Below, piece after piece: positions 23,990 through 43,425 of a DNA stretch of 64,000 bases (the stretch's first letter is position 1; each line of letters begins with the position of its first letter). The position numbers were made by a program, and so were the translations under genes. The notes under the pieces are model-generated. The model had not been told where the DNA came from. It did no database searches and saw nothing but the letters and a program-made list of their open reading frames with translations. The stretch is from Gammaproteobacteria bacterium (lineage in GTDB: Bacteria > Pseudomonadota > Gammaproteobacteria > SZUA-140). The DNA lies in assembly GCA_021648525.1 (NCBI GenBank), contig JAKISP010000010.1, positions 5,695 through 69,694 on the forward strand, written 5' to 3'.

Positions 23990-24418
23990 ATGAAGACTTT
24001 CAGTGCAAAAGCAGAGAGCGTAAGACGCGATTGGTACGTTGTGGATGCCGAAGATAAGACCCTGGGTCGTTTTGCGTCCGAGATCGCGCTGCGTCTGCGT
24101 GGCAAACATAAAGCGGAATACACCCCGCATGTGGACACTGGCGACTATATTGTGGTTGTGAATGCAGAAAAAGTGCGCGTGACCGGTAATAAAACAACCG
24201 ATAAGATTTACCATCGTCATACAGGCTATATTGGTAGCCTGAAATCGATCAGCTTTGAAAAGCTTCAGGCAGAAAAGCCTGAGCGGATCATCGAACTGGC
24301 CGTAAAAGGAATGTTGCCAAAGAACCCATTGGGTCGTGCAATGTTCAGAAAGCTGAAAGTGTATGCAGGTGCCGAGCATGGCCACGCTGCACAGCAGCCT
24401 AAACCACTCGATATTTAA
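23990..24418 (+). CDS. rplM: 50S ribosomal protein L13
   Basis: It is 142 aa. The start [20 protein letters not shown]... is highly characteristic of L13. Confidence 0.95.
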
Positions 24419-24436
24419 GTAGTCAGGAATTAAGAA

Positions 24437-24832
24437 ATGACAGATAAGGTACTTTGCACCACCGGGCGTCGCAAGAGTTCAAGTGCACGCGTATTCATGA
24501 CGCCTGGCGGAACAGGTCAGATCACTGTTAACAAGCGCACGTTAGAAGAATACTTCGGTCGTGAAACCTCTCGTATGGTTGTACGTCAGCCACTGGAGAC
24601 TGTTGATATGCTGAATAGTGTTGATCTTAATATTACTGTTGTGGGTGGTGGTAATACTGGTCAGGCCGGTGCGATTCGTCACGGCATTGCACGTGCACTA
24701 CTTGCTTACAATGAAGAGCTACGTAGCCCACTACGTCGCGCAGGATTTTTGACGCGTGATGCGCGTGAAGTTGAGCGTAAGAAAGTGGGTCTGCACAAGG
24801 CGCGTAAGCGTCCTCAGTTCTCGAAACGCTAA
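24437..24832 (+). CDS. rpsI: 30S ribosomal protein S9
   Basis: It is 131 aa. It ends ...[11 protein letters not shown]. It forms the rplM-rpsI operon. Confidence 0.95.
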
Positions 24833-25654: not shown

Positions 25655-26650
25655 ATGAATAAAAAATTAATTGCTTTGGCAGTTGCAGGTGCATTTGCAA
25701 GTTATGGTTCTGTGGCAACAGCCGCGAGTGCTACCATAAGTGGTTTTGCAGATATCATCTATACTGCTGCTGATGATGCTGCAGGCCCAGCTGTGGGTGT
25801 AGCCGGCAAAAATACCTCGGAAGGTAAATTTGCTGCGGATGCTGAAATTGATGTGATTGCAACAACAGGTGCGGTAACAGCGCGTATTGATGTTGATTTG
25901 GATCTTACTGGTGTGGGTGATTCCGGTACGCTTGAGCAAGCCATGTTTGCATGGGATCTTGGTGCGGTTACCCTGATCGGTGGTGTGTTCAATAACCCAA
26001 TCGGCGCTGATGCAGAAGATGCACCAGACATGGATTTCACCACGCATAGTGTTGTTTACAGTGTTCTCGACAGTCAAACTCAGAGAGACGGTAATAACAT
26101 TACTGGTGTGGCGCTTGCTGGTGCTGTGGGCCCCGTTACCTTAACGGGTGCTTTCCTGAATGATATTGGCGGCGCTAATGAGGAGAATTCTCTTGCATTT
26201 GTTGCTAACTATTCGCCAATTTCAGATCTTGATCTTGAGCTGGGTTTTGTGACCCAGGACGATCAAGTGGTTGGAGCAGCGGCTACAACCGCCGGTGATG
26301 TAGCTAACTTCAATGTAACCTACGGCATTAGCGGTTTTGTTGTAGGCCTGGATTACTTGACTGCATCGAATGTTGTTGATAGTGCCTATACTATCTGGGG
26401 TGGTTATACCCACGGTGATTTCAACTTTAAACTACGTGCCGAAAGTGTTGGCTGGGAAGCGACTGGTATGGAAGATCACGATGCAATCACTTTCTATGCT
26501 TCATATGCAGCAAACGAAAACCTGAGCATCGCGCTGGAATATAAAGATGGTGATCAAGGTGCTACCACTGCGCCTGGTAATACCGCTAATGCCATTAGTG
26601 GTATTGCACAGGATGGTCTGGCTACACTGGAATTCATCGCAACGTTTTAA
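25655..26650 (+). CDS. secreted outer-membrane porin-like protein, paralog 1 (unknown family)
   Basis: It is 331 aa. It has a signal peptide (MNKKLIALAVAGAFASYGSVATA) and a Gly/Asp/Thr-rich beta-rich composition. It ends ...LEFIATF with a C-terminal Phe. Confidence 0.6.
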   Translation: MNKKLIALAVAGAFASYGSVATAASATISGFADIIYTAADDAAGPAVGVAGKNTSEGKFAADAEIDVIATTGAVTARIDVDLDLTGVGDSGTLEQAMFAWDLGAVTLIGGVFNNPIGADAEDAPDMDFTTHSVVYSVLDSQTQRDGNNITGVALAGAVGPVTLTGAFLNDIGGANEENSLAFVANYSPISDLDLELGFVTQDDQVVGAAATTAGDVANFNVTYGISGFVVGLDYLTASNVVDSAYTIWGGYTHGDFNFKLRAESVGWEATGMEDHDAITFYASYAANENLSIALEYKDGDQGATTAPGNTANAISGIAQDGLATLEFIATF

Positions 26651-26677
26651 TTGCGGCTGAAATTTAAAGTGGCTTAA

Positions 26678-26707
26678 AAAGCCGAGCCTGATGGCTCGGC
26701 TTTTTTA
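26678..26707. terminator. rho-independent terminator
   Basis: The hairpin is gccgagcc tgat ggctcggc and is followed by a T6 run. Confidence 0.6.
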
Positions 26708-26834
26708 TGCCTGAAAGAGATAAGATTGATTGGGAAAAACCTGCAAGTAAAGCGCGGCAATAATTACTGTGGTTATTTTACAACGGTAAACGATAAGTTT
26801 TTTAGTGGGAAATATTGTTTTTTTGTTCTAACCG

Positions 26835-26910
26835 CTGTATATAAACGATCTGTTGTTGAGTGTTGACTAACATTAACGGGTTTAACGACCTTGTGATTTT
26901 CTAGGGGAGA
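26835..26910 (+). promoter_or_regulatory. conserved promoter/5' leader of OMP paralog 2
   Basis: See 25570..25645. The same conserved blocks and RBS are present. Confidence 0.4.
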
Positions 26911-26920
26911 GGGTGTCATA

Positions 26921-27976
26921 ATGAATAAAAAGCTTATTGCTTTGGCAGTAGCGGGTGTGATTTCGGCCTATGGGACGGCTGCAAACGCAGTGGAAGTGAG
27001 TGGTTTTGCCAATATTAAATACACTATTACAAATGATAGTGCAGTTAAGAATGAGGGAACTGCAACCGAATATAACAGCAAAGAAGATAAATTTGCGGTA
27101 GATGGTGAAATTGATGTGATTTCTACAGTAGGCGCGGTCACGACGCGTGTTGATGTTGATCTTAACCTTACTGGTAATGGTGATTCTGGTACGCTTGAGC
27201 AAGCCATGTTTGCCTGGGATCTCGATGCGGTTACTTTGATTGGTGGTGTTTTTAATAACCCAATCGGCTATGAAGCTGAAGATGTGCCGGATATAATCTT
27301 TAATGTTCATGGTGCGGTTTATACTGCGTTGGACAGCCAGACTGAGCGAGATGGTGACAATGTCACTGGTTTGGCGGTTGTGGGCGCGCTTGGCCCTGTG
27401 ACACTGACAGGTGCTTTTTTAAATGATTTACAGGATGTTAACGAAGAAAACAGCATTGCATTTATTGCAAACTACTCGCCAATAGCGGGTCTTGATCTGG
27501 AGCTTGGTTTTGCTACGCAAGCGGGTAATGCTGGGCTTGGCGATACTGCTGGATTAAATACTTCCGTGGGTGATATAACCAACTTCAATGTGGCTTATAC
27601 CGGCGTGAAAAACCTGACGGTTGGTCTAGATTACCTTATGGGTGATGTGGTGCTGGATTCTGCTTATGATCTCTGGGCAGGGTACTATTTTGGTGGTGGT
27701 TTTTCTGCGAATGTGCGTCTCTCAGAGGTTGAATACAGCAATAGCGATGTCGCGACATTGAATGCTGGCCTGGGGGGGGCAGCGGCAGTGAGTAGTGCAC
27801 TGGAAGGTGTTGGCCTCCCTGCGGGCGATTCAGAAACAACTACGCTAAATCTGACGTATAAAGTTTCGAAAAACCTGAAGGCGGCGCTTGAATTTTCAAG
27901 TACAGATGTCACTTTGTTATCAAGCCCTACAACTAATAATGATTTAGTCACGCTGAAGCTGCTAGCAACATTCTAA
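26921..27976 (+). CDS. secreted outer-membrane porin-like protein, paralog 2
   Basis: It is 351 aa. It is about 55% identical to paralog 1 over the N-terminal 200 aa (GDSGTLEQAMFAWDL...LIGGVFNNPIG). It ends ...LKLLATF. Confidence 0.6.
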   Translation: MNKKLIALAVAGVISAYGTAANAVEVSGFANIKYTITNDSAVKNEGTATEYNSKEDKFAVDGEIDVISTVGAVTTRVDVDLNLTGNGDSGTLEQAMFAWDLDAVTLIGGVFNNPIGYEAEDVPDIIFNVHGAVYTALDSQTERDGDNVTGLAVVGALGPVTLTGAFLNDLQDVNEENSIAFIANYSPIAGLDLELGFATQAGNAGLGDTAGLNTSVGDITNFNVAYTGVKNLTVGLDYLMGDVVLDSAYDLWAGYYFGGGFSANVRLSEVEYSNSDVATLNAGLGGAAAVSSALEGVGLPAGDSETTTLNLTYKVSKNLKAALEFSSTDVTLLSSPTTNNDLVTLKLLATF

Positions 27977-28000
27977 TAGCATTTTAAAAATAGGTGGTTT

Positions 28001-28030
28001 AAAAACCGGGCTCAATAGCCCGGTTTTTTT
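28001..28030. terminator. rho-independent terminator
   Basis: The hairpin is ccgggc tcaata gcccgg and is followed by a T7 run. Confidence 0.6.
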
Positions 28031-28216
28031 GTAAAGCGAGGGTGGAAATCGGATGGCGATGGTTGCTATTGGTTCGTGAATTTCTGTAAACTGCATCAGT
28101 TTTTCCTGGCGCTGGTTTTGAGGCTATATCGAGTCGTCGTTGCTGAATATGATTTCTTTATGCTGTTGCCATTGAAGCGTGATGGCGTCTATTTTTTGAA
28201 TAAGAGGGTCAATAGA

Positions 28217-29329
28217 GTGAATAAGAAAAAAATAGCGGTATTGGTGGCGACTGGCATGTTGGCGGCACCGCTGATAGTGCAGGCGGAGGATGTTGAGGTT
28301 TATGGTGATGTTCGCCTGTCGATAGATATGTCGCAGAATGAGCAAGACCCAGTGACTGGAGGAAAAGACGATAGTGCGCTGTCAGTGAACAGTAACACTT
28401 CCAAGCTCGGTTTTAAGGGGAGCGAGAAGCTGAGCGATAACCTCTCTGTTATCTGGCAGTATGAGACCGAGGTTGAACTCGACAATGGTGATCTGAGCGT
28501 CAAGGGGCGTGATACTTATGGTGGCCTGAAAGGGAGTTGGGGGTTGTTAAAGGCAGGAAAGTTGAGTAACCCAATGAAACAGTCTTCTAGCAAAATCGAT
28601 ATCTTTACTAATACACGTGCCGATCATAATATGATTGTTGGCTATGTTAATGGTGTTAACACCTTTGATAACCGTTTTGACAATACCATTTGGTACTCCA
28701 CGCCAAAATTTGGCGGGGTGAAGCTGGATCTGTCGTATACAACGGATAGTGCGGGCAGCAAAGAGGATGCGCTGCCTGGTAAGCTGATTTCTCCGCAAAA
28801 AAACGTGACCAGTTTTAGCCTGAACTATGACAAGGGGCCGCTCTATGTGGCAATCGCGACAGAGGCTCGGAATGACGCCAAACTTAAAGACAATGGGCAG
28901 TATGAAGATGTGGCCGCAACCAAATTAGTGGGACGCTGGGATTTTGGCCAGGGTACGACCGTGGGATTCATCTATGAAGATGCTGAAAATTCAGCGGGCG
29001 CAGAGACTTCTACAATGACCCTCGCCTCCGCATCAGGACAGGCGCGTACTGCGTTTTACCTGAATGCAGCTCATAAGATCGGTAACACGACGTTGAAAGC
29101 CGCCTACAGTCAGGCGGATGATCTTGATAACATGGCGGGTACGGGTGCTACCCACTATGCGCTAGGTGTATTTAAGTCGTATTCTAAAAATACAGAGCTC
29201 TACCTGCTTTACACGGCGACCAACAATGATGCTAATGCGAAATATGGCTTGAAAGACATGGCGGGTGTTGAGGGCAATACAATTTCTGCCCTGTCATTTG
29301 GCCTGAATAAGCGATTCAGTAGTAAATAA
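28217..29329 (+). CDS. Gram-negative general porin (Porin_4 / Neisseria-Burkholderia type)
   Basis: It has a GTG start after AAGAGGG. It has a signal peptide followed by AEDVEVYGDVRLSIDM...SKLGFKGSEKLSDNLSVIWQYE...YGGLKGSWGLLKAGKL, typical of 16-strand trimeric porins. It ends ...GLNKRFSSK. Confidence 0.7.
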   Translation: MNKKKIAVLVATGMLAAPLIVQAEDVEVYGDVRLSIDMSQNEQDPVTGGKDDSALSVNSNTSKLGFKGSEKLSDNLSVIWQYETEVELDNGDLSVKGRDTYGGLKGSWGLLKAGKLSNPMKQSSSKIDIFTNTRADHNMIVGYVNGVNTFDNRFDNTIWYSTPKFGGVKLDLSYTTDSAGSKEDALPGKLISPQKNVTSFSLNYDKGPLYVAIATEARNDAKLKDNGQYEDVAATKLVGRWDFGQGTTVGFIYEDAENSAGAETSTMTLASASGQARTAFYLNAAHKIGNTTLKAAYSQADDLDNMAGTGATHYALGVFKSYSKNTELYLLYTATNNDANAKYGLKDMAGVEGNTISALSFGLNKRFSSK

Positions 29330-29355
29330 CCGATACGCTGTTTATTGTCTAGTTG

Positions 29356-29386
29356 AGCGGGCACCTTTGGGTGCCCGTTTTTTTTG
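29356..29386. terminator. rho-independent terminator
   Basis: The hairpin is cgggcacc tttg ggtgcccg and is followed by a T8 run. Confidence 0.6.
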
Positions 29387-29519: not shown

Positions 29520-30359
29520 ATGACAAGACGTGGTGGGAGAGCTCGTTTAATCGGGCATTTGCTGGGGGGCGTTTTGGTGGGCATGTTATTGCCTGCTATG
29601 AGTGCTGTTGCCGGCGTCTACAACACCAAACACAATCTTGGCAGTAGCGGCCTGAATGCGGCCAGTAATTTTAGTGGTACAGAAGAGATCTGTGTCTTTT
29701 GCCATACCCCGCATGGTGGTGATGCGTCGGCGGCGGTACCCATCTGGAATCGTCAGCTGGATGCGGGCGGTTTTCAAACCTATGATCAGATGGGGACCAC
29801 CACGCTAGATGCGAATGTTGAGCCGATAGGCTCTGTCTCCATTGCCTGCCTCTCCTGTCATGATGGCTCACAGGCGATGGATGCAGTCATTAATGAGCCA
29901 GGTTCGCTGGCTGATAACCCCTCTTTTTCTGCGGGTGACTGGAGCGGCCAGGCGGCGGCAGTTCAGGGGCGAATTGGGCCGGTTGATGTGGTGACAAATT
30001 TAGGTAAGGATCTAACGAACGACCACCCTGTCGGGATTCAATATGCAGGTGGCGGCTATTCAGAGAGCTACCCGGAGGGGCGACCAAGAGTCGATATTGA
30101 CTTTAATCCGCCAACCTCAGAAGTGCTGAGTACGGGGCGGGTGTGGTGGGTAGATAGCCGTGAGCATCCCGAGTCTTCTTTTAGTAAACGAGATTTAAAG
30201 CTTTATTCTCGCGTAGGGACACGCGGTACCAATGTTGGTGAGCTGCAGCCTTATGTGGAATGTGCATCGTGTCATGATCCGCATGTGGACTACAATCCGA
30301 CCTTTTTAAGGATTGACCCCGCTGGAAGCGCGGTTTGCCTGACTTGTCACGCGAAGTAA
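29520..30359 (+). CDS. tetraheme c-type cytochrome with doubled-CXXCH domains (paired_CXXCH family)
   Basis: It has a GGGGGAG RBS and a signal peptide. It has 4 CXXCH motifs (CVFCHTPH, CLSCHDG, CASCHDPH, CLTCHAK). The CHDPH...FLR...CxxCH spacing matches the doubled-CXXCH motif. Confidence 0.8.
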   Translation: MTRRGGRARLIGHLLGGVLVGMLLPAMSAVAGVYNTKHNLGSSGLNAASNFSGTEEICVFCHTPHGGDASAAVPIWNRQLDAGGFQTYDQMGTTTLDANVEPIGSVSIACLSCHDGSQAMDAVINEPGSLADNPSFSAGDWSGQAAAVQGRIGPVDVVTNLGKDLTNDHPVGIQYAGGGYSESYPEGRPRVDIDFNPPTSEVLSTGRVWWVDSREHPESSFSKRDLKLYSRVGTRGTNVGELQPYVECASCHDPHVDYNPTFLRIDPAGSAVCLTCHAK

Positions 30360-31361
30360 GTGATGGTGATGAAGTTGACTGCGCTGTGGATGCTACTGGG
30401 TTTAATGGCTGTGCCAGCCCTGGCCGAGCAAGTGGTGCTTGAACAGCGCCAGTCGGCGCTTGCTGCGGATGTATTTGCGGTGGTGGACGGAAAGGTCATT
30501 ACACAGCAGACATTTGATACCTTTTTGCACGTGGGAAAACGACAGCGGTTTTACCATGGTGATATCCCTGAAGCGGAAGAGGCTGCATTTCGAAAGGAGG
30601 TGGCGCAGCGCTTGATTGATCAGGTGTTGATGCGCTCCGCGGTGAAAGAAAGAGGGGTAGTAGCAGAGCCAGAGCAGGTGAAGGTTCAGTTGGCGGCCAT
30701 TGAGGCGCGCTATGAGTCGCGGCCGCATTGGCGGGCACAGCGAGAAGGATTCCTTGCAGAGTTATTGCCGCAGGTGGAAGAACAGAGTCAGTTCGAGCAG
30801 CTTGAGACGCAGGTGCGGAACGTGGTTGAGGTGAGTGAAACGGCGGTGGTGGCCTATTATCAGGCCAATTCCGAACAATTTACGACGCCGGAGCGACTGC
30901 GTGTTTCGCTGATTTTGTTAGGTGTCGAACCCTGGGCGCAGGCAGCCCAGTGGCAGGCGGCAATGGATGAGGGTGAGCGCTTAATTAAGCGACTGCGACA
31001 GGGCGGAGATTTTGCAGAGATGGCTCGCTTGCATTCAAGTGATGGCTCAGGGCTTAAAGGCGGTGATTTAGGTTACGTTCACAAAGGAATGTTGGCGGAA
31101 GAGGCGCAGCAGGTGCTGGATAAAATGATGCCGGGGGAGGTGTCGTCTGCCATTCGTTTGCTGAAAGGTGTCGCGATATTCAGGGTTGATGAGCGGGTTT
31201 CACCGGTGTTGAATCTGTTTGAACGGGTTGCACCACGCGCACGCGATTTGTATGTGCGTGAGCAGAGCGAAAAGAACTGGCGTGAGTTTATGAGTGAGAT
31301 GCGCAGTAGTGCGGATGTACAGGTAAGAGATCCGTTGCTGTTACCAATTAGCGATGAGTAG
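30360..31361 (+). CDS. periplasmic PpiC-type peptidyl-prolyl cis-trans isomerase (parvulin; SurA/PpiD-like chaperone)
   Basis: It has a signal peptide and a parvulin domain (SLILLGVEPW...GGDFAEMARLHSSDGSGLKGGDLGYVHKGMLAEEAQ). Confidence 0.7.
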   Translation: MMVMKLTALWMLLGLMAVPALAEQVVLEQRQSALAADVFAVVDGKVITQQTFDTFLHVGKRQRFYHGDIPEAEEAAFRKEVAQRLIDQVLMRSAVKERGVVAEPEQVKVQLAAIEARYESRPHWRAQREGFLAELLPQVEEQSQFEQLETQVRNVVEVSETAVVAYYQANSEQFTTPERLRVSLILLGVEPWAQAAQWQAAMDEGERLIKRLRQGGDFAEMARLHSSDGSGLKGGDLGYVHKGMLAEEAQQVLDKMMPGEVSSAIRLLKGVAIFRVDERVSPVLNLFERVAPRARDLYVREQSEKNWREFMSEMRSSADVQVRDPLLLPISDE

Positions 31362-31422
31362 TAGGGGGTTGTTCTGATTATCATGCGGTCGTTGCAAGTC
31401 GTATTTGTGACGTTAGATCAAT

Positions 31423-33231
31423 GTGGGCTGGATGGCTAGGGAGATAGCATCCCGGCGTTTATACCTGTTAGCCTCGGTTGCGATGTTGTGCCCGCTCGCC
31501 GCGCCATTAGCCGCGCCTGTTGATCTGTCGGGTGATGTTGGGTATGCCTACCGTTTGATGAAAGGTGATAATAGTGAAACCGTGAGTAACCAGCTACGAG
31601 GTTCGATACGCGGCAGGTCTTACTTGGGGCAGCCGTGGATTGCGACTGTGGATGTCGGTTTGCGATTTACCGAGGATAGAGCCAATTACAGCCTCACTTC
31701 GAGTGCGCATGTTGATGGTAGTGATACTAAATTGGTGACCGGTGACCTGAGCCTGAATGTGATTCCGCAGAGCCGTTTTCCTATTTCAATCTCCTATCAG
31801 GCCAATGATAGCCGCGTTGATGCTACGCTGAATACCATCACCAGCCCACTCACGGCGGCGGGTAATCGTGAATTCAAGACCCGGCGTTTTTCGATTAGGC
31901 AGAATATTACGGCAGACAGCGCCAGCCGTTTTAAGTGGAACCTGGATTCCAATCAGTGGGATTCCAGTAATAGTGAAAAATACAGTGACTGGTTATTAGG
32001 TGGCAGTGCTGATTTTGGTTTTGATGACCACCGGTTACAGTTGCGAGGGAGTTATAAGTCTATTGACCGGGCCGCTTTAAGTCAGGAGACAACGAATACT
32101 ACGCTGAGTGGTGATCATTTTTATCATAGCCCGACGCGGGCGCTCAGAGTGGACTCTTCTGTGGATTACTACCAGTATCAAACAGAAGGGGTAGCGTCCG
32201 ATATTGTCTTTAGTAACGGTGAGCTTGATACGACCAGTTATCAGGCGTCGAGCTTTGTATTCTGGCGCCCCGTTGACCGTAAGCTGAGCGCGAGTGCAGG
32301 TGTGCGGGTGTTTAATCTGACCAGTGATGCTATTTCAACTAACACCGCAGAGACGACAATTAGTAATGAAACTGAGCTGCTGAGTCTGAATGCGAGTGCG
32401 GCTGGGTTGTATCAATATACAAAAAATGTCCGCTTTGATGGGAATGTGAACTTTTCCGTTAATGATAACGGTGTAGAAGAGAATAATGCGTACCTTGGGC
32501 GATTGGGCGCACTGTTACAGTCCGATATTCATGAAATTCCTTTGGGGATGATGTATCAGTGGCGTGCATCGGCTGCGGCACAGACACAGGGGATAGAAAG
32601 GAATAAGCAGTACCAGACATTGAGTGTTAATCTGGGGCACGATGCGAACCGTAGCTGGCTGAATGATGATAAAAGTTCTGCATTACGGTTTGGTTGGAGT
32701 CAGGCGGTTAATGCTTCGCTTGAAAGTGGTGATGAGGACGCGAACTCACAGCGGTTTGATCATTCGGTCAATGTCGGCTGGGATCGTTATGGTGATCGTG
32801 ACAGTACTTATTCTCAGCTTACTATCTCGGATGCGCGCACCCTGGGTGATCGTGAAAGTGATCAGCAGTTGGTGAATCTACAGCTCACTCGAACGCAAAA
32901 TATGACCCGACGTAGCACGTTAACGGGCAATATTACCGCGCAAAGTGTGCGCCAGAATTTTGCTGGTCAGGATGCGAGTGAGATATCAACAACCACGACT
33001 GGAGCGATAAATTATCAGCTTTCCAGCGTGTTTGGTATTCCTCGTTTTCGTTATGGGTTTGATGTTCGCGTGTCACGAGCATCTCAGGATTCGGGAGTTG
33101 ATCGTGCCGAATGGGAACACCGACTGGATTATAGTGTCGGTCTAGTAGATACTAGGGCCAGTTGGCGCCTGATTGATGCTGGGGAGCAGAATTACACTTT
33201 GGTGTATTTTCAGGTTACACGACGTTTTTGA
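31423..33231 (+). CDS. large outer-membrane beta-barrel protein (602 aa, no heme motifs), a candidate porin component of a porin-cytochrome complex
   Basis: It has a signal peptide (…AMLCPLAAPLAAP). It is rich in alternating polar/aromatic beta-strand segments. It has a C-terminal aromatic end (...YFQVTRRF). It has no CXXCH. Confidence 0.55.
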   Translation: MGWMAREIASRRLYLLASVAMLCPLAAPLAAPVDLSGDVGYAYRLMKGDNSETVSNQLRGSIRGRSYLGQPWIATVDVGLRFTEDRANYSLTSSAHVDGSDTKLVTGDLSLNVIPQSRFPISISYQANDSRVDATLNTITSPLTAAGNREFKTRRFSIRQNITADSASRFKWNLDSNQWDSSNSEKYSDWLLGGSADFGFDDHRLQLRGSYKSIDRAALSQETTNTTLSGDHFYHSPTRALRVDSSVDYYQYQTEGVASDIVFSNGELDTTSYQASSFVFWRPVDRKLSASAGVRVFNLTSDAISTNTAETTISNETELLSLNASAAGLYQYTKNVRFDGNVNFSVNDNGVEENNAYLGRLGALLQSDIHEIPLGMMYQWRASAAAQTQGIERNKQYQTLSVNLGHDANRSWLNDDKSSALRFGWSQAVNASLESGDEDANSQRFDHSVNVGWDRYGDRDSTYSQLTISDARTLGDRESDQQLVNLQLTRTQNMTRRSTLTGNITAQSVRQNFAGQDASEISTTTTGAINYQLSSVFGIPRFRYGFDVRVSRASQDSGVDRAEWEHRLDYSVGLVDTRASWRLIDAGEQNYTLVYFQVTRRF

Positions 33232-33284
33232 CAGGCGTTGTAGGCCTCATATAATAAGAGTAAATTACGAGGAGAGAGTTTGAT

Positions 33285-33722
33285 ATGTCATCTAAGATCA
33301 AGCGTAATGTGTTGAAATCGATGATCATAGGGGTATTAGCGTATATGGGGGCTCTGGGGGCCCCGCAGCCTGCGCAAGCAGAGTATGCTGATATCGTGAT
33401 CAATAACTATGCTGATGCAGCAGGAATGCGCCCTGCCGTTTTTCCGCATTGGTTCCACCGAATTCGTTTCCGTTGCAAGGTTTGTCATACAGACCTGGGT
33501 TTTGCGTTTAAAGCGGGTGGTAATAAAATCGATATGGCTAAAATTATCGATGGCAAGTTCTGCGGAGCCTGTCATAACGGTGAAATTTCATGGTCGGTAG
33601 AAAACTGTGCCATGTGCCATTCCGGGATACCGGGGCAACCAACCCATTTTCACGGCAGTACGGTGCAGCGTCTGATCGCCCCGGCGTATAAGCCACTTCA
33701 AGCCAACGACGCTAAGAAATAA
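33285..33722 (+). CDS. periplasmic triheme cytochrome c7/c3-type (PpcA-like)
   Basis: It is 145 aa with a signal peptide. Heme 1 is FPHWFHRIRFRCKVCH, as in c7 cytochromes, plus CGACHNG and CAMCHSG. Confidence 0.75.
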   Translation: MSSKIKRNVLKSMIIGVLAYMGALGAPQPAQAEYADIVINNYADAAGMRPAVFPHWFHRIRFRCKVCHTDLGFAFKAGGNKIDMAKIIDGKFCGACHNGEISWSVENCAMCHSGIPGQPTHFHGSTVQRLIAPAYKPLQANDAKK

Positions 33723-33736
33723 GAGGAAGGCAAGCA

Positions 33737-34408
33737 ATGAATCATAAAACTAAAGCTGTTTCCTTATCTCTGGCGATGCTGGTGTCTGCCTTTGCGTGGA
33801 ATGCGCAGAGCCATGCAGATGAAGCGACCGGGGTGAAACAATCACCATTGATGTTGGCTGAGGTTTCGTCTGCCAACACCTTTAACGTTAACTTGAAGAA
33901 GCCTAAATCACGCAATCTTCCGCCTGCGGAAGACGGCATTCATGATCCAGAAAATGAAGCAACTCACTCGTTGCAGCATCCACTTGATGCCTATAAAGGG
34001 CTGCCAACAAGTGAATTTGGTAACTATGTTGACTGGGTGAAGGCGCTTGATGAGGGTAAATTGCGTCCGCGTTGGGATCGTTCCGATCCAAACGAAGAGC
34101 CATTTGTGCTCGATCTTGATATTGTACGTCCAGTGAAGGCGTCTGTGCCTGATGTGGTTTTTCCACATCGTCAGCACACCGAGTGGCTTTACTGCTCAAA
34201 TTGCCATCCTGCAATCTTTATTCCTCAGAAGAATGCGAATCAGATCAGTATGTCCGCAATTCTTCTGGGTCAAAAATGTGGCGTCTGCCACGGAAAGGTT
34301 TCTTTTCCAATTGAGACCAAAACCTGTCGTAAGTGTCATTCTAAGCCTAAACCGGCTGGTTGGACGCCTCCTTTGAGTGAAGCAACACTGAAGAATCCCT
34401 GGAAATAA
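33737..34408 (+). CDS. periplasmic c7-type triheme cytochrome with an ~120-aa N-terminal extension (paralog A)
   Basis: It has a signal peptide. It has a DGIHDP motif in the extension. The c7 module is VVFPHRQHTEWLYCSNCHP...IPQK...CGVCHGKVSFP...CRKCH. Confidence 0.75.
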   Translation: MNHKTKAVSLSLAMLVSAFAWNAQSHADEATGVKQSPLMLAEVSSANTFNVNLKKPKSRNLPPAEDGIHDPENEATHSLQHPLDAYKGLPTSEFGNYVDWVKALDEGKLRPRWDRSDPNEEPFVLDLDIVRPVKASVPDVVFPHRQHTEWLYCSNCHPAIFIPQKNANQISMSAILLGQKCGVCHGKVSFPIETKTCRKCHSKPKPAGWTPPLSEATLKNPWK

Positions 34409-34542
34409 CCGACACATTAATCAGAGCTATAGCATATTCTAAGGATTGATAATTAACGCCGGACGAACTCTTCGCCCGGCGTTCCCTATAATGTGTTTCA
34501 GGCAAGATTAATTGTTCAGTTAATTTTAAGGAAGTTGAAACC

Positions 34543-35874
34543 ATGAAAACACCATTTCAAATGCGTTCTCCAGTGCGAGCAGGGATAACCTCTATTCTGC
34601 TTGGCCTGGCAATGCCCAGTTATGCCTTCGATGATGATTGGGGCGATGGCGGAACGCTTGAAATTGAGCGTATTTTTGTGGTCACTGCTCAGGATAAACC
34701 AGATACCCATCCGTTTTATGGTGTCGGCCATAAACGTGGCATGGAGGTGGATGGTGTACCCGGAAAGGAATTAGTGCTGACGCGTGGCAAGAGTTATGCC
34801 TTTCGAGTGGATACAGATATAAAGCATGATTTCTATCTGTCAACCGAGTCGGTAGGCTGGGGAGCCTCAGTGCTGGCAGAGGGGGTTGAAGGTAATTTTA
34901 CCTATGACGGTATTGTTACCATCGAAACGGATAACAAAACACCCAAAGAATTTTTTTATGCTTGTCGTAACCATAAATACATGGGCGGCAAGATTCATAT
35001 TGCGAATGCAGGTGAAGAAGATAAGGTAGAGCTTGGCAAGATCGATATCTCGAAATTGCCACCAACAAAGCCACCTAAACCTGTTTCAGAACGTACGGTT
35101 AAGCAAAAAATTAGCTTTGCAGACATGTTTGTTAGCCTGTCATCAGCGGCGAAACGCGTCGCTAATAGTGATAATGATAAGGCAAAAATCGCTTACACCG
35201 ATGCACATGATCGCCTCAATAAAGCGAAAATAGCGCTGGATGCGGATGATCTTGTGCTGGCGCTGTTCGAAGTGGATGAATCACTGCGCTCGATGAGTAC
35301 TGCGGCACGTCTGGTGCCAACGCCCGAGCAGCTAGAAGAGCAGAAACGTATATTTGTAGCCTTACTGGAAGAGGTGAGGTCATTTGAGAAGTCATATAAA
35401 CGGAATGTTGAGCGTCTGGAGAAGAGTGGCCGAACCGATGTGCGTGATGACCTGAGTTATGCTGAATTAGAGAGTACGATAGAAGCTGCGGAAAGCCTTT
35501 ATGAAATGAAGGAAATTGTTGCTGCGAATCGTTTGATGAAAAATTTACAGAAAGCGATTACATCAGCATTGGGTAAGATGCTTGACAACACCACAGTGGT
35601 ATATGATAAAAACTTTGAGACGCCACTGGAGGAGTTTGAATACGAGCTTGCGCGCTACCTTAGCTATGAAGAGTTGATCCCGCTAGCGATCGAGCAGAAA
35701 CGTCCTTCTAAACGAGCGATAGAGTTGATGGATCAGTTTGTTGTTAAAGGTAAGGACATTTATCTACAATCGAAACCGGTGATTGAAGGAAAGGATTATA
35801 AAAACGCGATTTTGATGTTGCAAGGCGCAACATTTCAGTTGAAACGTGCATTACGGATGGTAGGAGTGAGATAG
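34543..35874 (+). CDS. cupredoxin (amicyanin-like type-1 copper) domain fused to a long alpha-helical C-terminal domain, novel fusion
   Basis: It has a signal peptide. Its copper-ligand pattern YACRNHKYMGGKIHI (C-x2-H-x2-M-G-K) closely mirrors amicyanin HCTPHPFMRGKVVV, with a candidate upstream His (KHDFYL). A Pro/Lys linker is followed by about 280 aa of helical heptad-like sequence. Confidence 0.6.
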   Translation: MKTPFQMRSPVRAGITSILLGLAMPSYAFDDDWGDGGTLEIERIFVVTAQDKPDTHPFYGVGHKRGMEVDGVPGKELVLTRGKSYAFRVDTDIKHDFYLSTESVGWGASVLAEGVEGNFTYDGIVTIETDNKTPKEFFYACRNHKYMGGKIHIANAGEEDKVELGKIDISKLPPTKPPKPVSERTVKQKISFADMFVSLSSAAKRVANSDNDKAKIAYTDAHDRLNKAKIALDADDLVLALFEVDESLRSMSTAARLVPTPEQLEEQKRIFVALLEEVRSFEKSYKRNVERLEKSGRTDVRDDLSYAELESTIEAAESLYEMKEIVAANRLMKNLQKAITSALGKMLDNTTVVYDKNFETPLEEFEYELARYLSYEELIPLAIEQKRPSKRAIELMDQFVVKGKDIYLQSKPVIEGKDYKNAILMLQGATFQLKRALRMVGVR

Positions 35875-35875
35875 C

Positions 35876-36526
35876 ATGACGCAAGCTATGAGCGAACGAT
35901 CACAAAAAATGCTGCCAATGAATGGTTGGTGGTGTGTGCTCGTGCTGATGGCCTGTTTTTGTTTTAGTACGTCGAGCCATGCGGCTGAGTCAGCGTTTAC
36001 GGATGCTGCTAACCCTTCGGAACCAGGCATCACGGCCGTCTGGTCTCGCGGCCTGCATTTTCAGACTGAAGGTGAAGTGGTGCCACTGGCTGAAGATGGT
36101 ATTCACGATCCTACTAATGATGCGGTCAAATTGTTACAGGAACCCTATGAAGCGATGGCTGAATTTCCACGGGATTCTCAGGGCATCATTGACTGGGTGC
36201 AGACACTACGCCAGGGATTGATTGATCCGCGGATGAGCCTGACTGGTGAAGAAGAGATGTTTCCGGTCGATTTTGATATTATTTTTAAAAATACGGGTTC
36301 AATGCCTCATGTCCGCTTTCCGCATTTAGAACATACTGAGTGGCTGACCTGTGCTAACTGTCATCCATTGATCTTTATTCCTCAAAAAGGCGGAAATCCT
36401 GTCTCCATGTCGGCAATTATTCAGGGTGAATATTGCGGTGTGTGTCATGGTAAGGTCGCCTTTCCACCAACGATGAATTGCGGCCGATGTCACTCCGTTC
36501 CAAATCAAGCCAACTTGCGGCGCTAA
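35876..36526 (+). CDS. periplasmic c7-type triheme cytochrome with an N-terminal extension (paralog B of 33737..34408)
   Basis: It has the same architecture as paralog A. It has LAEDGIHDPTND and the c7 module VRFPHLEHTEWLTCANCHP...IPQK...CGVCHGKVAFP...CGRCH. Confidence 0.75.
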   Translation: MTQAMSERSQKMLPMNGWWCVLVLMACFCFSTSSHAAESAFTDAANPSEPGITAVWSRGLHFQTEGEVVPLAEDGIHDPTNDAVKLLQEPYEAMAEFPRDSQGIIDWVQTLRQGLIDPRMSLTGEEEMFPVDFDIIFKNTGSMPHVRFPHLEHTEWLTCANCHPLIFIPQKGGNPVSMSAIIQGEYCGVCHGKVAFPPTMNCGRCHSVPNQANLRR

Positions 36527-37746
36527 TCGCACTGACATCCTCCCTTCTAATTGGGGGGTGTTCAATGCTGTCAAAAGACCCGGCTTCGAGCGCCACTCAT
36601 GCATCAGTGCAACAGTCACTCTATGGCTGGCGAGAGATTGAAGGTGGGGTCGAGTCAGCATGGACAGATAATTCGGCTTTATCAGCTATTACTGGTCAGC
36701 GATACGTTCGTTTTGTTCGGCCGGTGCAGGTGGCGGCGCGCGGAAACTTTGTCTTTGTTGTTGATGCTGGCCCAGAATTGCTTTATCGCTATGATCTTAG
36801 CCGTAATGAGTTGAAGGTTGTATTGAATCTCAAGGGGGTTATGGCTGGTGAAGTCACGGATCTTTATGTCTACCCGGATCACTCATTTCTCCTGGTAGAC
36901 CCTGATTCCGCACGTGTGCTGCACTTTAGTCGCAATGGGCGTCTAATTCGTATTTTCCAGGATGGTTTAAATCTGATTCGCCCTGTTGCTGTCACCTATG
37001 ACGAGGAGATGGGGCGCGTATTGATTGCCGATGGCTCCAGTGATGACGTGCTGGTGTTTTCTACAACAGGGCAATTACAGGGCGTGATTGGCACACGTGG
37101 TGTTCAGGAAGGGCAGTTTTTAAATATTACGGCGATGACTTCTGGCGCTGACGGTATTTATGTCACGGCACGCCTTGGTCATCGATTACAGGTAATGGGG
37201 CGTGATGGTTCACATGTGAAATCATTTCAGTCTGATGCAGTGGTGTTTCCGTTGGCTGTTGCAGTCGATAGAAGCGGCAATACATTTGTGAGTGACTATC
37301 TTGATAACTCGATTAAGGTTTTTCAGGATGGCCTGTTTCTTGAGAGTATTGCTGGATCTGGTTTTTCACCTGGTCGTTTTAAGCGGATTAGCGACTTGTG
37401 GTACGACGAAGGTTTTCTCTATGCTGTCGATAGCCTTAACGGGCGGATTCAGGTATTAAGAGTTGAGGTGATTGAACCTGAAATAGAAACGTTTGTTGAA
37501 GATGAAATTGACCTGGAAACAGCACCTCCTGCAGCTGCTGAGGTGTTACCGTTAGGGGAGCCAGGTGAAGAGCTGGAACTGGAAACTGCGCAGAATGAAC
37601 TGGAGGAATTGCAGGAGGAACTTGAAGCTGCTCGCTTAGAATTAGACGCTGAAGCTGACAGGCAGCCGGCCGAAGCCCCGCTTACTTCCGAGCCTCTTCC
37701 TGTTGAACCTGGTCAAGTGATTGATTCACCTGGTAGCGAAATTTAG
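36478..37746 (+). CDS. NHL-repeat beta-propeller lipoprotein with an acidic C-terminal tail
   Basis: It has a lipobox (LLIGGC). Multiple NHL-like blades are present (VFVVDAG...LYRYD, VLIADGSSDDVLVF, IYVTARLGHRLQV, TFVSDYLDNSIKVF, LYAVDSLNGRIQVL). The C-terminus is an E/L-rich acidic tail. Confidence 0.65.
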   Translation: MRPMSLRSKSSQLAALIALTSSLLIGGCSMLSKDPASSATHASVQQSLYGWREIEGGVESAWTDNSALSAITGQRYVRFVRPVQVAARGNFVFVVDAGPELLYRYDLSRNELKVVLNLKGVMAGEVTDLYVYPDHSFLLVDPDSARVLHFSRNGRLIRIFQDGLNLIRPVAVTYDEEMGRVLIADGSSDDVLVFSTTGQLQGVIGTRGVQEGQFLNITAMTSGADGIYVTARLGHRLQVMGRDGSHVKSFQSDAVVFPLAVAVDRSGNTFVSDYLDNSIKVFQDGLFLESIAGSGFSPGRFKRISDLWYDEGFLYAVDSLNGRIQVLRVEVIEPEIETFVEDEIDLETAPPAAAEVLPLGEPGEELELETAQNELEELQEELEAARLELDAEADRQPAEAPLTSEPLPVEPGQVIDSPGSEI

Positions 37747-37760
37747 AAATAAACATAATC

Positions 37761-38837
37761 ATGATGCTTAACTCTCGCCAAGGGCTGGTTGTGCTGTTAT
37801 GCCTGATTTTTTCAGGCTGCGCCTCCGCACCTGCTGTTCTGAAATATGACCTTGAAGAGGCGGCTGGGACAGTCTGGCCAGCCACCCCGGAGGTGGCACG
37901 TTATCAATACGTGGGGCAGCTAACCGGTGAAGAAAATTTCATCCATTCGAGTGATGATGTCTCAATGGGGCGTAAGGTTTTTGAATGGATTGTGGGTGTT
38001 GTGACCGGAGAAGAAGCCCCAACGGTTTTACAGCGTCCGCAATCTGGTACGGTAGATCGCGATGGACGTATTTATGTCACGGATGTGAGTCGTGCGGCAG
38101 TATATGTGTTTGATGGGCAAGGCGGTCGACTGGATGTGTGGGAGATGGCGGGTGAGGCGTTGCGATTTAAAACACCGATCGGCATAGCGGTGGTTGAAAA
38201 AGCGGAAGGTGTACGTGAAATTCTGGTCGTTGATGCGGATCTTAAACGTGTGGTGGTACTAGATCAGAAAGGTATCCCGCAGCGCCACTTTGGTAGTGAT
38301 GTATTGACGCGGCCAACTGGACTGGCGCGGGATCCAGAGAGCGGCCAGCTCTATGTGGCGGATACTCACGGGCATGACATCAAGGTGTTTAGCGCAGATG
38401 GTGTATTGCTTAAAACGCTTGGAGTCAGTGCGAGGGGAGAAGGTCCGGGGCAATTTAACTCACCTACTCATCTTACTTTTGCGGCTGGCCAACTGTATGT
38501 GACCGATACACTTAATTCACGAGTGAAGATTTTTAGCGCGGATGGAGAGCTTGTGCGTATTTTTGGACGGCGCGGGATTTTTGTGGGTGACCTGCCGCGC
38601 CCCAAAGGGCTGGCGGTTGATAAAGACGGCAATATCTATGTGGTGGAATCCTATTATGATCATCTGTTAGTATTCAATGGTGAAGGGAACCTGCTTTTGC
38701 CGATTGGCGGCTCGGGTAGCGGCGTAGGGCAGTTTTACCTGCCCGCAGGTGTCTGGACTGACCACCGTGACAGGATATATGTGGCTGATAGTTTCAATGG
38801 TCGGGTCGTGATATTACAATATTTGGGGGGGGCATGA
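37761..38837 (+). CDS. NHL-repeat six-bladed beta-propeller lipoprotein
   Basis: It has a lipobox (IFSGCAS). It has six NHL blades (RIYVTDVSRAAVYVFD, LYVADTHGHDIKVF, LYVTDTLNSRVKIF, IYVVESYYDHLLVF, IYVADSFNGRVVIL...). Confidence 0.7.
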   Translation: MMLNSRQGLVVLLCLIFSGCASAPAVLKYDLEEAAGTVWPATPEVARYQYVGQLTGEENFIHSSDDVSMGRKVFEWIVGVVTGEEAPTVLQRPQSGTVDRDGRIYVTDVSRAAVYVFDGQGGRLDVWEMAGEALRFKTPIGIAVVEKAEGVREILVVDADLKRVVVLDQKGIPQRHFGSDVLTRPTGLARDPESGQLYVADTHGHDIKVFSADGVLLKTLGVSARGEGPGQFNSPTHLTFAAGQLYVTDTLNSRVKIFSADGELVRIFGRRGIFVGDLPRPKGLAVDKDGNIYVVESYYDHLLVFNGEGNLLLPIGGSGSGVGQFYLPAGVWTDHRDRIYVADSFNGRVVILQYLGGA

Positions 38838-41509: not shown

Positions 41510-42543
41510 GCGGAGTGCTGCGCCGTCTGGCATCAACAAAGCTAACATTATTATGGATGTTACTGTTAGCCGTTGGTGCAGCGCTGAGTTACGATAATCC
41601 TGAGGATACTTCGATCTGGGTCTTGATCGTACCGATGTCACTGCTGGCGCTTAACCTGATCGCTGCAATTATCAGTAACCCCCGCATCAATCGACGTGGC
41701 GGTCTGCTAGTATTCCATCTGGGCTTGTTAAGTATTGTTGTGCTGGCTGCGATTGGTCGCCTGACCCATATGGATGGACGTGTTGAAATTATCTCTGGCG
41801 CTGAGTTCTCACCTGAAATAGTCACCGATATACATAGCGGTCCGCTGCATAGCGGTGCACTGGCTGATGTGAATTTTGTACAGGGGCCATTTACAGTTGA
41901 GTATCGTCCTCAGATGATGCGAGGCCTTACCTATAGTCAGGTTGCCCTGCCTGATAATAAAGGTGGGTGGCGAGAAGCAGTGGTGGGTGATGACCGCCCG
42001 CTCCTGGTTGAGGGATACCGTTTCTATACCACTTTCAATAAAGGGTTCGCGCCAATATTAAGCTGGACGAGTCATGATGGACGGGTGGCTGAAACTGGCG
42101 CTGTTCATATGCCCTCATACCCCTTGTTTGATTTTAAACAGTCAAATAGCTGGACACCTCAGGGAGGCGATGAAATTAAATTCTGGTTGCAGTTAGAAAC
42201 CGGCCTTACCACTGAAGAGGCGTGGGTGCTCGATGGACGACGTGCGACAGGTACGCTGGTAGTTAATGTATCGGGTGAACGTACGGAATTATTACCGGGA
42301 GAGAGTGTCAAAATGGCGGGTGGTACATTACGTTACGAGCAGCTTACGACCTGGATGGGCTACAAATTATTTTATGACCCCACATTACAGTGGATGTTTC
42401 TCGCCGCATTTATCACGATTGCTGGGCTTGCCGCCCATTTTTGGCAAAAACTGGCGGCAGAACCACTGGGACTGGATGATGCGCTACGACATGAAAAACA
42501 GCATGCAAAAGGATCGGTGCCTGCATCGCGTTCGGCAGCGTAG
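41491..42543 (+). CDS. System II cytochrome c biogenesis protein ResB/Ccs1 (CcsB) family
   Basis: It has an N-terminal TM pair, a large periplasmic domain and a C-terminal TM (WMGYKLFYDPTLQWMFLAAFITIAGL). It lies immediately upstream of a CcsA/ResC gene. It is shorter (350 aa) than canonical ResB. Confidence 0.6.
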   Translation: MRIITISGVLRRLASTKLTLLWMLLLAVGAALSYDNPEDTSIWVLIVPMSLLALNLIAAIISNPRINRRGGLLVFHLGLLSIVVLAAIGRLTHMDGRVEIISGAEFSPEIVTDIHSGPLHSGALADVNFVQGPFTVEYRPQMMRGLTYSQVALPDNKGGWREAVVGDDRPLLVEGYRFYTTFNKGFAPILSWTSHDGRVAETGAVHMPSYPLFDFKQSNSWTPQGGDEIKFWLQLETGLTTEEAWVLDGRRATGTLVVNVSGERTELLPGESVKMAGGTLRYEQLTTWMGYKLFYDPTLQWMFLAAFITIAGLAAHFWQKLAAEPLGLDDALRHEKQHAKGSVPASRSAA

Positions 42544-42564: not shown

Positions 42565-43425
42565 ATGACAGAATTACCATGGTTATACGCAGGCATCGCA
42601 GCCTATGCATTTGCAGCTATCGCAGCGCTGGTGGGTGTGGCACGATTAGGCACAACGATGGCGACTGTTGGCGGGGTCAGTAGCGTCAGTGAAAGCCAGC
42701 GCAATAATGAAAGACTGGTGCTTTTATTGATGACCACGAGTGTGATTTTACTGACGATCACGCTAGCTGATCGCTGGCTGCGCATTGGCCATGGCCCGTT
42801 TGTAAACCTGTTTGAGTTATTAATCAGCCAGCTCTTTAGCCTTGGTCTGGTTTATACCATCGCTTACTGGCGCATCCCTGTATTGCGTACCACATCCGTG
42901 GTGGTGTTGCCGCTGATGGGTGTGTTAGCTGTGTGGGTCATGGTGCTTGAACCGTCAGATAGTGTATTCCCGCCCACTTATCACAACCCATGGCTATGGG
43001 CACATGTTGGCTTTGGTAAATTTTTCCTCGCCTTTTGTTTAATCGGCACCGGGTTAGCTGGCGTGATCTTACTACGTAGTTATGGCTTTTTTAAAAACCT
43101 GTTTCGTCATCTGCCTGATAATGTCATCCTCGATAAACTGGCGTGGCGATTTATGTTGCTTGCGCTGGTGTTTGATAGCCTGATGTTATGTGCCGGTGCG
43201 GTTTGGGCACAGGATGCATGGGGACGCTACTGGGCATGGGATGCGCTGGAAACATCATCATTCCTTAACTGGCTGCTATTAGGTGCCTCAATACATGCGC
43301 GCACAACCTATAATGTTCCTATCCGGTTAGGTGCAGTTCTGATTATCAGTGTTCTTGTTTTTGCATTTGTCACCTACTTTGGCACCCCTTTCTATAGCGA
43401 AGCGGCACACAAAGGGGTGATATAG
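42565..43425 (+). CDS. cytochrome c-type biogenesis protein CcsA/ResC (heme-handling WWD-domain protein)
   Basis: It is 286 aa with multiple TM helices. It has the Trp-rich WWD motif WGRYWAWDALETSSFLNWLLL and conserved His residues. Confidence 0.8.
   Translation: MTELPWLYAGIAAYAFAAIAALVGVARLGTTMATVGGVSSVSESQRNNERLVLLLMTTSVILLTITLADRWLRIGHGPFVNLFELLISQLFSLGLVYTIAYWRIPVLRTTSVVVLPLMGVLAVWVMVLEPSDSVFPPTYHNPWLWAHVGFGKFFLAFCLIGTGLAGVILLRSYGFFKNLFRHLPDNVILDKLAWRFMLLALVFDSLMLCAGAVWAQDAWGRYWAWDALETSSFLNWLLLGASIHARTTYNVPIRLGAVLIISVLVFAFVTYFGTPFYSEAAHKGVI

Follow-up and report, generated by a model that had tools for sequence, protein, structure and literature searches.

A predicted 28-strand outer-membrane barrel and an OmcE-like cytochrome in the uet cluster of a hydrothermal-vent gammaproteobacterium

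What occupies a very wide outer-membrane barrel that has no heme motif of its own and is encoded among multiheme cytochromes? The question is raised by a 64,000-nucleotide stretch of a Gammaproteobacteria metagenome-assembled genome (MAG; GenBank assembly GCA_021648525.1, contig JAKISP010000010.1, positions 5,695 to 69,694 of the forward strand), hereafter the window, with positions counted from its first base. Here the gene of such a barrel, uetC, stands directly downstream of a tetraheme cytochrome gene (uetA) and the gene of a parvulin-type peptidylprolyl isomerase (PPIase; uetB). An earlier note on this DNA had proposed the barrel as a candidate electron-conduit porin. How cytochrome nanowires pass through the outer membrane and are kept attached there is a related matter, on which reviews call current views speculative.

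The barrel and the PPIase are, from the match of the surrounding genes, UetC and UetB of the uet (undecaheme electron transfer) cluster, which has been published as a prediction. UetA is, by sequence comparison, a full-length homolog of the filament-forming cytochrome OmcE, with all eight heme ligands conserved. We lean, by somewhat more than an even chance, towards UetC as the outer-membrane passage, or port, or else the anchor, for an OmcE-like cytochrome wire used in electron uptake.

The OmcE-like cytochromes and the barrel

Four genes of the cluster carry most of the argument:

29520-30359, + strand: uetA, 279-aa tetraheme cytochrome, OmcE homolog; four CXXCH motifs; Paired_CXXCH match
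30360-31361, + strand: uetB, 333-aa predicted periplasmic SurA-like chaperone with a single parvulin domain; Pfam Rotamase, SurA_N_3 and SurA_N_2
31423-33231, + strand: uetC, 602-aa heme-less outer-membrane beta-barrel of about 28 strands, plug-less in the AlphaFold2 (AF2) model
38834-41509, + strand: uetJ, 891-aa undecaheme cytochrome; eleven CXXCH motifs; Paired_CXXCH match; OmcE-like over its first ~279 residues

In a search against PDB sequences, UetA matched 9YUQ (a 'putative multiheme cytochrome c', E 3.7e-27) and 7TFS (Geobacter sulfurreducens OmcE, E 9.3e-26). Entry 9YUQ presumably represents the OmcE bundle of D. soudanensis that Petersen et al. described in 2025. UetA aligns over its full length with G. 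sulfurreducens OmcE (P0274, 232 aa) at 32% identity (E 3e-31), and the identity between UetA and OmcE ranges from 31 to 42% depending on the comparison (31% and 32% in two alignments, 36% and 42% to the PDB fragments). The two OmcE proteins that are confirmed as filaments are only 41% identical to each other. The four CXXCH motifs and the histidines H38, H65, H169 and H255 are invariant in UetA, OmcE, two distant UetA homologs and the first 279 residues of UetJ. UetA and its close homologs differ from Geobacter OmcE by an insertion of ~50 residues (residues ~178-245) with a conserved 'RVWWVD' motif. This insertion is predicted as a small beta-sheet and is the only part of the UetA model with moderate AF2 confidence.

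UetJ carries a second module of this type. Its residues 14-241 match 7TFS (E 2e-18), and its N-terminus (38834-39670, ~279 residues) is 30% identical to OmcE over 278 aa, with 4 CXXCH motifs and 4 distal His aligned; seven more hemes lie C-terminal to this tetraheme module. A UetA filament could have UetJ as its specialised end subunit, whether base, tip or stopper. No candidate end subunit is encoded in the omcE operons of Desulfuromonadia (Petersen et al. 2025, bioRxiv 10.1101/2025.10.22.684050). A third link to the omcE cluster comes from UetI, which is 31% identical over 352 aa to the NHL beta-propeller protein encoded in the Geobacter omcE cluster (E 6e-47).

The OmcE link of UetA, the OmcE-like module of UetJ, the propeller match of UetI and a parvulin domain without its histidines in UetB (see below) are new relative to the published description of uet. 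OmcE is not mentioned in the preprint of Eddie et al. (bioRxiv 10.1101/2022.05.06.490989), nor are Uet and Tenderia in that of Petersen et al. (bioRxiv 10.1101/2025.10.22.684050). With UetA homologous to OmcE, the most probable mechanism moves away from a plain MtrAB-type sheath and towards a passage or anchor for a cytochrome filament.

UetC begins with a basic and then a hydrophobic stretch, resembling a signal peptide, and ends in ...YFQVTRRF, thus with a final Phe (the protein has 599 aa if counted from the ATG of the NCBI annotation). It contains a single Cys and neither CXXCH nor CX3-4CH, and CXXCH occurred in none of the 190 family members that were fetched. An AF2 model built from a 41-sequence alignment (mean pLDDT 83.5, pTM 0.66) has a low-confidence N-terminal helix, corresponding to the signal peptide, followed by 28 long strands (DSSP; mean 15 residues) with loops of 2-16 residues, and no plug, usher-like periplasmic domain or extra domain. 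The model makes UetC a large outer-membrane barrel with about 28 strands and no heme. The strands are amphipathic, with a mean Kyte-Doolittle value of +0.43 in the lipid-facing phase versus -1.41 in the lumen-facing phase. Positions with at least 90% conservation make up 33% of those facing the lumen versus 19% of those facing the lipid. Many of the conserved lumen-facing positions are Arg, Asp, Glu or Gln, and this conserved charged interior fits a specific, conserved occupant. From standard barrel geometry, 28 strands would give a diameter of about 50-52 A at the C-alpha level, in line with the pore of roughly 5 nm already published for UetC (Eddie et al. 2022), and the 26 strands of MtrB about 47-48 A. 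With about 28 strands, very short loops and no plug, such a barrel could hardly stay open and would have to be filled by a partner.

A Foldseek search of the PDB with the UetC model gave MtrB as the best match (6R2Q_B; E 3e-8, TM 0.48, 10% identity), and TonB-dependent receptors, LptD and the FimD usher followed at lower TM (FimD, TM 0.31). At the level of sequence, UetC had no Pfam or NCBIfam match at E 0.1 or better, and its family profile had no significant match to any solved structure among PDB sequences. Its close relatives number forty-one in a collection of 5.8 billion proteins, none of them with a name, and a second protein search with a broader UetC alignment returned the same 41 proteins plus one. 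After the identical protein, annotated as hypothetical (L3J89_04425) in a Gammaproteobacteria MAG, the relatives next in line derive from hydrothermal-vent metagenomes. A profile search of 1.84 billion cluster representatives yielded 859 representatives of the family; among ten distant ones, a single organism name came up, Hydrogenophilales.

Two other identities for UetC were considered and rejected. The number and amphipathic pattern of its strands, the C-terminal Phe and the strict synteny described below speak against a nutrient porin or a periplasmic protein. Membership of the MtrB/PioB family was rejected at the level of sequence, for lack of a Pfam, NCBIfam or PDB sequence match. The earlier note had described a heme-less 602-aa protein with a signal peptide, a C-terminal aromatic residue and no recognisable MtrB/PioB similarity, and each of these points held. 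The strand count and the Foldseek search that it had suggested gave about 28 strands, with MtrB first; the model and the sequence point to neither a barrel of 16 or fewer strands, nor a non-barrel fold, nor a periplasmic protein. Its reading as an electron-conduit porin is a reasonable one for a large heme-less barrel so tightly linked to a SurA-like protein and multiheme cytochromes.

The uet cluster and its conservation

A tight run of ten + strand genes extends from 29520 to 41509. In the open reading frame (ORF) listing, the intergenic gaps are 0-135 bases or short overlaps, with the widest gap, of 135 bases, between 34408 and 34543. The ten genes correspond one for one, and in order, to uetABCDEFGHIJ, named by Eddie et al. 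(2022) in 'Ca. Tenderia electrophaga' (bioRxiv 10.1101/2022.05.06.490989; mSphere 7:e0022322). The published list gives UetA as a tetraheme cytochrome, UetB as a peptidylprolyl isomerase, UetC as a beta-barrel outer-membrane protein (OMP) and UetD and UetE as c7 trihemes. It continues with the cupredoxin UetF, the c7 triheme UetG, the NHL proteins UetH and UetI and the undecaheme UetJ, followed by ccsA, ccsB, a TPR gene and batABD (Eddie et al. 2022). In the window, the remaining genes of the run and the three that follow it are:

33285-33722, + strand: uetD, 145-aa c7-type triheme cytochrome (TIGR04257 E 2e-17, PF14522); three CXXCH motifs; candidate periplasmic shuttle
33737-34408, + strand: uetE, 223-aa c7-type triheme cytochrome (TIGR04257 E 4e-17); three CXXCH motifs
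34543-35874, + strand: uetF, 443-aa secreted protein, corresponding in position and order to the published cupredoxin-domain UetF; present in 34 loci
35876-36526, + strand: uetG, 216-aa c7-type triheme cytochrome (TIGR04257 E 1.7e-17); three CXXCH motifs
36478-37746, + strand: uetH, 422-aa NHL beta-propeller with a lipoprotein-like N-terminus (lipobox LIGGC)
37761-38837, + strand: uetI, 358-aa NHL beta-propeller lipoprotein (lipobox IFSGC; NHL E 3.9e-26)
41491-42543, + strand: ResB/CcsB-like system II cytochrome c biogenesis protein (PF05140 E 4e-12)
42565-43425, + strand: CcsA-type cytochrome c assembly protein (PF01578 E 1.5e-21)
43434-44219, + strand: TPR protein in the NrfG-like position of the published module (TPR_2, TPR_11 and TPR_19 matches)

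The five cytochromes thus carry 4, 3, 3, 3 and 11 CXXCH motifs in gene order, and the barrel and PPIase genes stand where the earlier note had placed them, between the tetraheme (four CXXCH, 279 aa) and the c7 trihemes (three TIGR04257 matches downstream). Given this gene-for-gene match, what that note took for a possible new barrel family is UetC. The family is therefore not new, and an MtrB-like sheath with 28 predicted strands and a pore of roughly 5 nm is already in print for it (Eddie et al. 2022). The locus itself re-identifies a published, predicted gene cluster, and the idea of an electron-conduit porin is a published hypothesis.

Some members were harder to place by domain searches. 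UetF had no Pfam or NCBIfam match, and it contains a C-x2-H-x2-M motif (YACRNHKYM). The NHL/DUF5128 matches of UetH are weak and below the Pfam cut-offs (E about 5e-4), so its identity as a propeller rests on homology to the NHL protein of the Geobacter omcE cluster (E 2.7e-14). The ResB-like, CcsA-type and TPR genes follow uetJ as the ccs and TPR genes do in the published module, where they are accessory and not what defines UetC. The batABD genes of that module, likewise accessory, are not adjacent in the window, and their place is taken at 44234-46925, 3' of the ccs and TPR genes, by genes for a DsbA-like thioredoxin (216 aa) and a SelO-like protein (635 aa).

The host is a hydrothermal-vent gammaproteobacterial MAG related to Tenderiales, and is probably one of the 'group 2' relatives of Eddie et al. 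We scanned genomes of the GTDB with the barrel alignment and found thirty-eight loci in Gammaproteobacteria or Chromatiales MAGs, including three labelled Candidatus Tenderia and one fragment labelled Pirellulaceae. All thirty-eight are colinear with the window as far as each contig reaches. The three Ca. Tenderia MAG loci (L031, L033, L034) show identities of 32-34% for the barrel (residues 3-602; E 1e-81 to 1e-85), 66-72% for UetA and 42% for UetB; these values apply to the MAG loci, the type protein ALP54624.1 lying outside the comparison. Other carriers have been reported, with the uet cluster found in six Gallionella genomes (PMC10734462) and, as an outlier, in Leptothrix cholodnii (Eddie et al. 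2022).

Across the related loci, median identities to the window proteins were 78% for UetD, 70% for UetA, 60% for UetJ, 48% for UetH, 44% for UetB and 40% for UetC. Within the 38 loci the cytochromes therefore diverge much more slowly than the barrel, chaperone and propellers. Two more distant variants were found, one on a metagenome contig (barrel 24% identical) and one in a Ramlibacter MAG (26%). Both keep the order NHL propeller, UetA-like tetraheme, SurA-like PPIase, barrel, which in the Ramlibacter locus is followed by c7 cytochromes, UetF-like C-terminal domains and a further two propellers. As the gene order is kept in the thirty-eight loci and in these variants, the arrangement of cytochrome, chaperone and barrel is not due to chance, and since both variants retain these three genes the trio forms an invariant unit. 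The Ramlibacter variant has only the C-terminal helical half of UetF, as two tandem genes (L042, 9734-11547), and the cupredoxin part would thus be dispensable for the core.

What may fill the barrel

UetB separates the cytochrome from the barrel in gene order and might serve either of them. It matches Pfam Rotamase (E 3.5e-14) and, above the cut-offs, SurA_N_3 and SurA_N_2. Its best PDB sequence match is SurA (E 1e-10), with residues 38-322 aligned to 8-296 of 2PV3, a construct of the SurA N-domain, P1 and C-terminal helix. UetB thus shares the N-domain, parvulin 1 and C-terminal helix with SurA of E. coli (1M5Y, 2PV3), but has one parvulin domain (residues ~181-279) where SurA has two, and is encoded within a cytochrome operon whereas SurA is a housekeeping gene. 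The histidines of SurA P1 (sHILI, GFHILKV) are Leu and Ala in UetB, and both parvulin histidines are replaced in all thirty-nine UetB homologs (39/39), the first by L/M/T/V and the second by Ala. This replacement suggests that the parvulin domain is non-catalytic and that UetB acts as a holdase, in a chaperone-only role, and not as an active isomerase. The earlier description of the protein as a SurA-like chaperone for OMPs stands as far as the likeness to SurA goes; its activity as an isomerase is doubtful, and its client may be a different one. UetB probably keeps UetA and UetJ, or the nascent barrel, competent for assembly. PPIase-type proteins accompany other nanowire cytochromes of Geobacter, and by this analogy the client of UetB may be a cytochrome instead of the barrel. 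The omcZ operon of Geobacter includes a prolyl isomerase, and OscH of the omcS companion operon of G. sulfurreducens is proposed as a folding factor for OmcS (as summarised in PMC13194489).

Taken with the wide, plug-less barrel, the OmcE link leads to the model that we favour. The occupant of UetC would be a chain of UetA subunits forming an OmcE-like heme wire, one end of which is possibly joined by the OmcE-like N-terminal module of UetJ. The wire would then cross the outer membrane at UetC, which would also hold it in place there. Electrons from a solid donor (mineral or cathode) would run inward along the wire to the periplasm, where the c7 trihemes could act as carriers. UetB would serve as a SurA-like periplasmic holdase for UetA and UetJ or for the nascent barrel, and the two NHL propeller lipoproteins might be assembly or quality-control factors. 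A broader version of this model is that uet is a complete, self-contained OmcE-type nanowire system working in the uptake direction, with UetC as a new filament port, UetB as a dedicated non-catalytic holdase and UetJ as the end subunit. We put this forward tentatively, as less likely than not. UetC would in that case be a family of 28-strand barrels unrelated in sequence to the Geobacter barrel. The hosts would be aerobic or microaerophilic lithoautotrophs (Tenderiales and relatives, some Gallionella, and Ramlibacter/Leptothrix-like Betaproteobacteria).

The closest known comparison for such a wire is the omcE cluster of Desulfuromonadia. In G. sulfurreducens the locus runs from purHDE, ppcA, resB and ccsB through the genes of two multiheme cytochromes and an NHL propeller to omcE, which is followed at once by the gene of a 752-aa protein without a Pfam match and then by glycosyltransferase genes. 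In minimal omcE clusters, OmcE is accompanied by a large barrel, two propeller lipoproteins and two multiheme cytochromes; the barrel has been proposed to be either a port for secretion or an anchor, and OmcE homologs in Pseudomonadota have been noted to have porin genes nearby (Petersen et al. 2025, bioRxiv 10.1101/2025.10.22.684050). The uet and omcE clusters both encode an OmcE-family subunit in which every heme ligand is present, an NHL propeller lipoprotein that is homologous between them, further multiheme cytochromes and, close downstream of the subunit gene, a large barrel without annotation (in uet, with the chaperone gene in between). The Geobacter cluster differs in that it lacks a PPIase, a cupredoxin protein and an undecaheme with an OmcE module and has no c7 trio inside it. 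The Geobacter wire exports electrons (metal reduction), whereas uet hosts are predicted to be lithoautotrophs that take them up. Homology between UetC and the 752-aa Geobacter barrel was considered and not accepted, as every sequence comparison was non-significant; without detectable sequence similarity the two are positional analogs only.

Other known systems resemble parts of the cluster. The uet cluster of Ca. Tenderia has the same ten genes in the same order, with a heme-less barrel of ~28 strands and a ~5 nm pore followed by ccs and TPR genes; the lineage differs, as does the adjacency of batABD. MtrB (MtrCAB, 6R2Q), PioB and MtoB are heme-less, plug-less and very wide barrels encoded among multiheme cytochrome genes. 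UetC as modelled is likewise wide and plug-less, but with 28 predicted strands against the 26 of MtrB and a TM of only 0.48 to it. The osc operon that accompanies omcS in G. sulfurreducens (Shen et al. 2025, Cell Chem Biol 32:239) is described, in the summary of its roles in PMC13194489, as encoding the PPIase-type OscH (folding), OscE/F/G (channel or secretion) and the propeller-like OscD (morphology). Its likeness to uet lies in these described roles and not in a comparison of Osc and Uet sequences, and its nanowire subunit, OmcS, is a hexaheme without sequence similarity to OmcE.

Several results weigh against a port or anchor for a UetA wire. The comparison of UetC with the 752-aa Geobacter barrel gave an hhalign probability of 0.7%, and BLASTP, HMMs of the two family alignments and phmmer on 314 fetched proteins were all non-significant. 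No PPIase is encoded within 10 kb of the Geobacter omcE locus. The lumen size of UetC is a geometric estimate and not taken from model coordinates, and hydrophobicity was the sole guide to which way the strand faces point. AF2 modelled UetA poorly (49-sequence alignment; pLDDT 49.7), and this model tests neither the OmcE fold nor the subunit interfaces; low AF2 confidence is expected for a heme-dependent fold such as this one. Geobacter surface cytochromes are reported to be fast-evolving, and a UetA that is far more conserved than the barrel (70% versus 40% median identity) is not expected of a freely exposed filament. Finally, localisation, complex formation and polymerisation of the Uet proteins are all predictions.

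A serious rival is the classical porin-cytochrome sheath, in which UetC would hold a single, non-polymerised multiheme cytochrome, as MtrB holds MtrA, and no filament would be formed. The bar-shaped undecaheme UetJ, or else UetA, would sit in the barrel and link an extracellular cytochrome to the periplasmic trihemes. The barrel is wide, plug-less and short-looped, MtrB is its best structural match in the PDB, and eleven hemes would be long enough to span it. This is also the arrangement proposed in the published model, in which UetA and UetJ are predicted to be extracellular (Eddie et al. 2022). Yet the cluster encodes no MtrA/DmsE-family decaheme (TIGR03508 scores of 29-38 bits, far below the cut-off of 192), UetC has no MtrB/PioB sequence signal, and a sheath leaves unexplained why the highly conserved UetA is a full-length OmcE homolog with a complete ligand set and why uet and omcE clusters have a propeller in common. 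The earlier note had seen the signature of an MtrB/PioB-type sheath here; the large barrel fits this, but with a homolog of the OmcE nanowire subunit as the tetraheme a plain MtrAB-type mechanism becomes less likely. We regard the sheath as possible, if doubtful.

A lesser rival is that UetC and UetB form an usher-like port that only exports folded or partly folded UetA and UetJ to the surface, with UetC outside the steady-state electron path and the wire reaching the cell by another route. A porin-type route for mounting or secretion is favoured by Petersen et al. 2025 (bioRxiv 10.1101/2025.10.22.684050), and OscE, OscF and OscG are proposed to act in secretion of OmcS and OscH in its folding, as summarised in PMC13194489. 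A chaperone gene between the subunit and barrel genes recalls chaperone-usher operons, and the FimD usher is among the Foldseek matches, if weakly. After export, however, an empty 28-strand barrel without a plug would breach the outer membrane, the model shows neither the plug nor the periplasmic domain of an usher, and the conserved charged lumen fits a permanent occupant at least equally well, which makes export alone unlikely. It is far less probable still that UetC is a general or substrate-specific diffusion channel, with UetB as a general OMP chaperone, and that both merely lie beside cytochrome genes. UetC has neither hemes nor a family annotation and three other porin-like genes stand just upstream, but such a channel is hard to reconcile with strict colinearity with cytochrome genes in thirty-eight loci and the distant variants, with small gaps between barrel and cytochrome genes, and with a strand number far above that of nutrient porins.

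If UetC does serve as the port or anchor of a UetA wire, the uet cluster would be a cleaner setting than Geobacter for studying how nanowires are mounted, initiated and terminated. The cluster is compact and strongly conserved, with an OmcE-family subunit, a chaperone and a giant barrel adjoining one another and a second OmcE-like module fused to a longer cytochrome. Nanowires would also extend to autotrophs that take up electrons, among them biocathode, iron-oxidising and vent bacteria. The OmcE link, the UetJ module and the histidine-less parvulin domain make the filament-port model testable.

Transcription signals and flanking genes

Two short elements bear on the transcription of the cluster:

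29355-29380, + strand: intrinsic-terminator-like hairpin, with an 11-pair stem (7 G-C) followed by a T-run, 3' of the Porin_4 gene
33228-33255, + strand: sigma-70 consensus match, TTGACA-16-TATAAT (12/12 positions), at the gap of 53 bases between the uetC stop and the uetD start

The hairpin parts the uet run from the upstream Porin_4 gene and marks the start of the uet unit. A match of at least 10/12 at the uetC-uetD gap is kept in about sixteen of thirty-seven related loci (16/37). On cathodes, Ca. Tenderia electrophaga expresses few genes more strongly than those of the uet trihemes. As a consensus match, the element at 33228-33255 may be an internal promoter for these highly expressed triheme genes, separate from that of uetABC.

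Directly upstream of uetA, at 25655-29329, lie three genes for outer-membrane proteins. Two are paralogs of 331 and 351 aa that end in ...ATF and have no Pfam match; the third encodes a 417-aa general porin of the Porin_4 family. Homologs of these proteins hold the same position in most of the related loci, including the Tenderia MAGs (porin 31-43% identical). The ribosomal protein genes rplM and rpsI are found further upstream, at 23990-24832. GC skew is positive in every 2-kb bin of the window (0.06-0.34), and nearly all long ORFs within about 24-55 kb, the stretch with listed ORFs, are on the + strand. Together, the skew and the strand of the ORFs would fit a segment of the leading strand that lies well away from the origin or terminus of replication.

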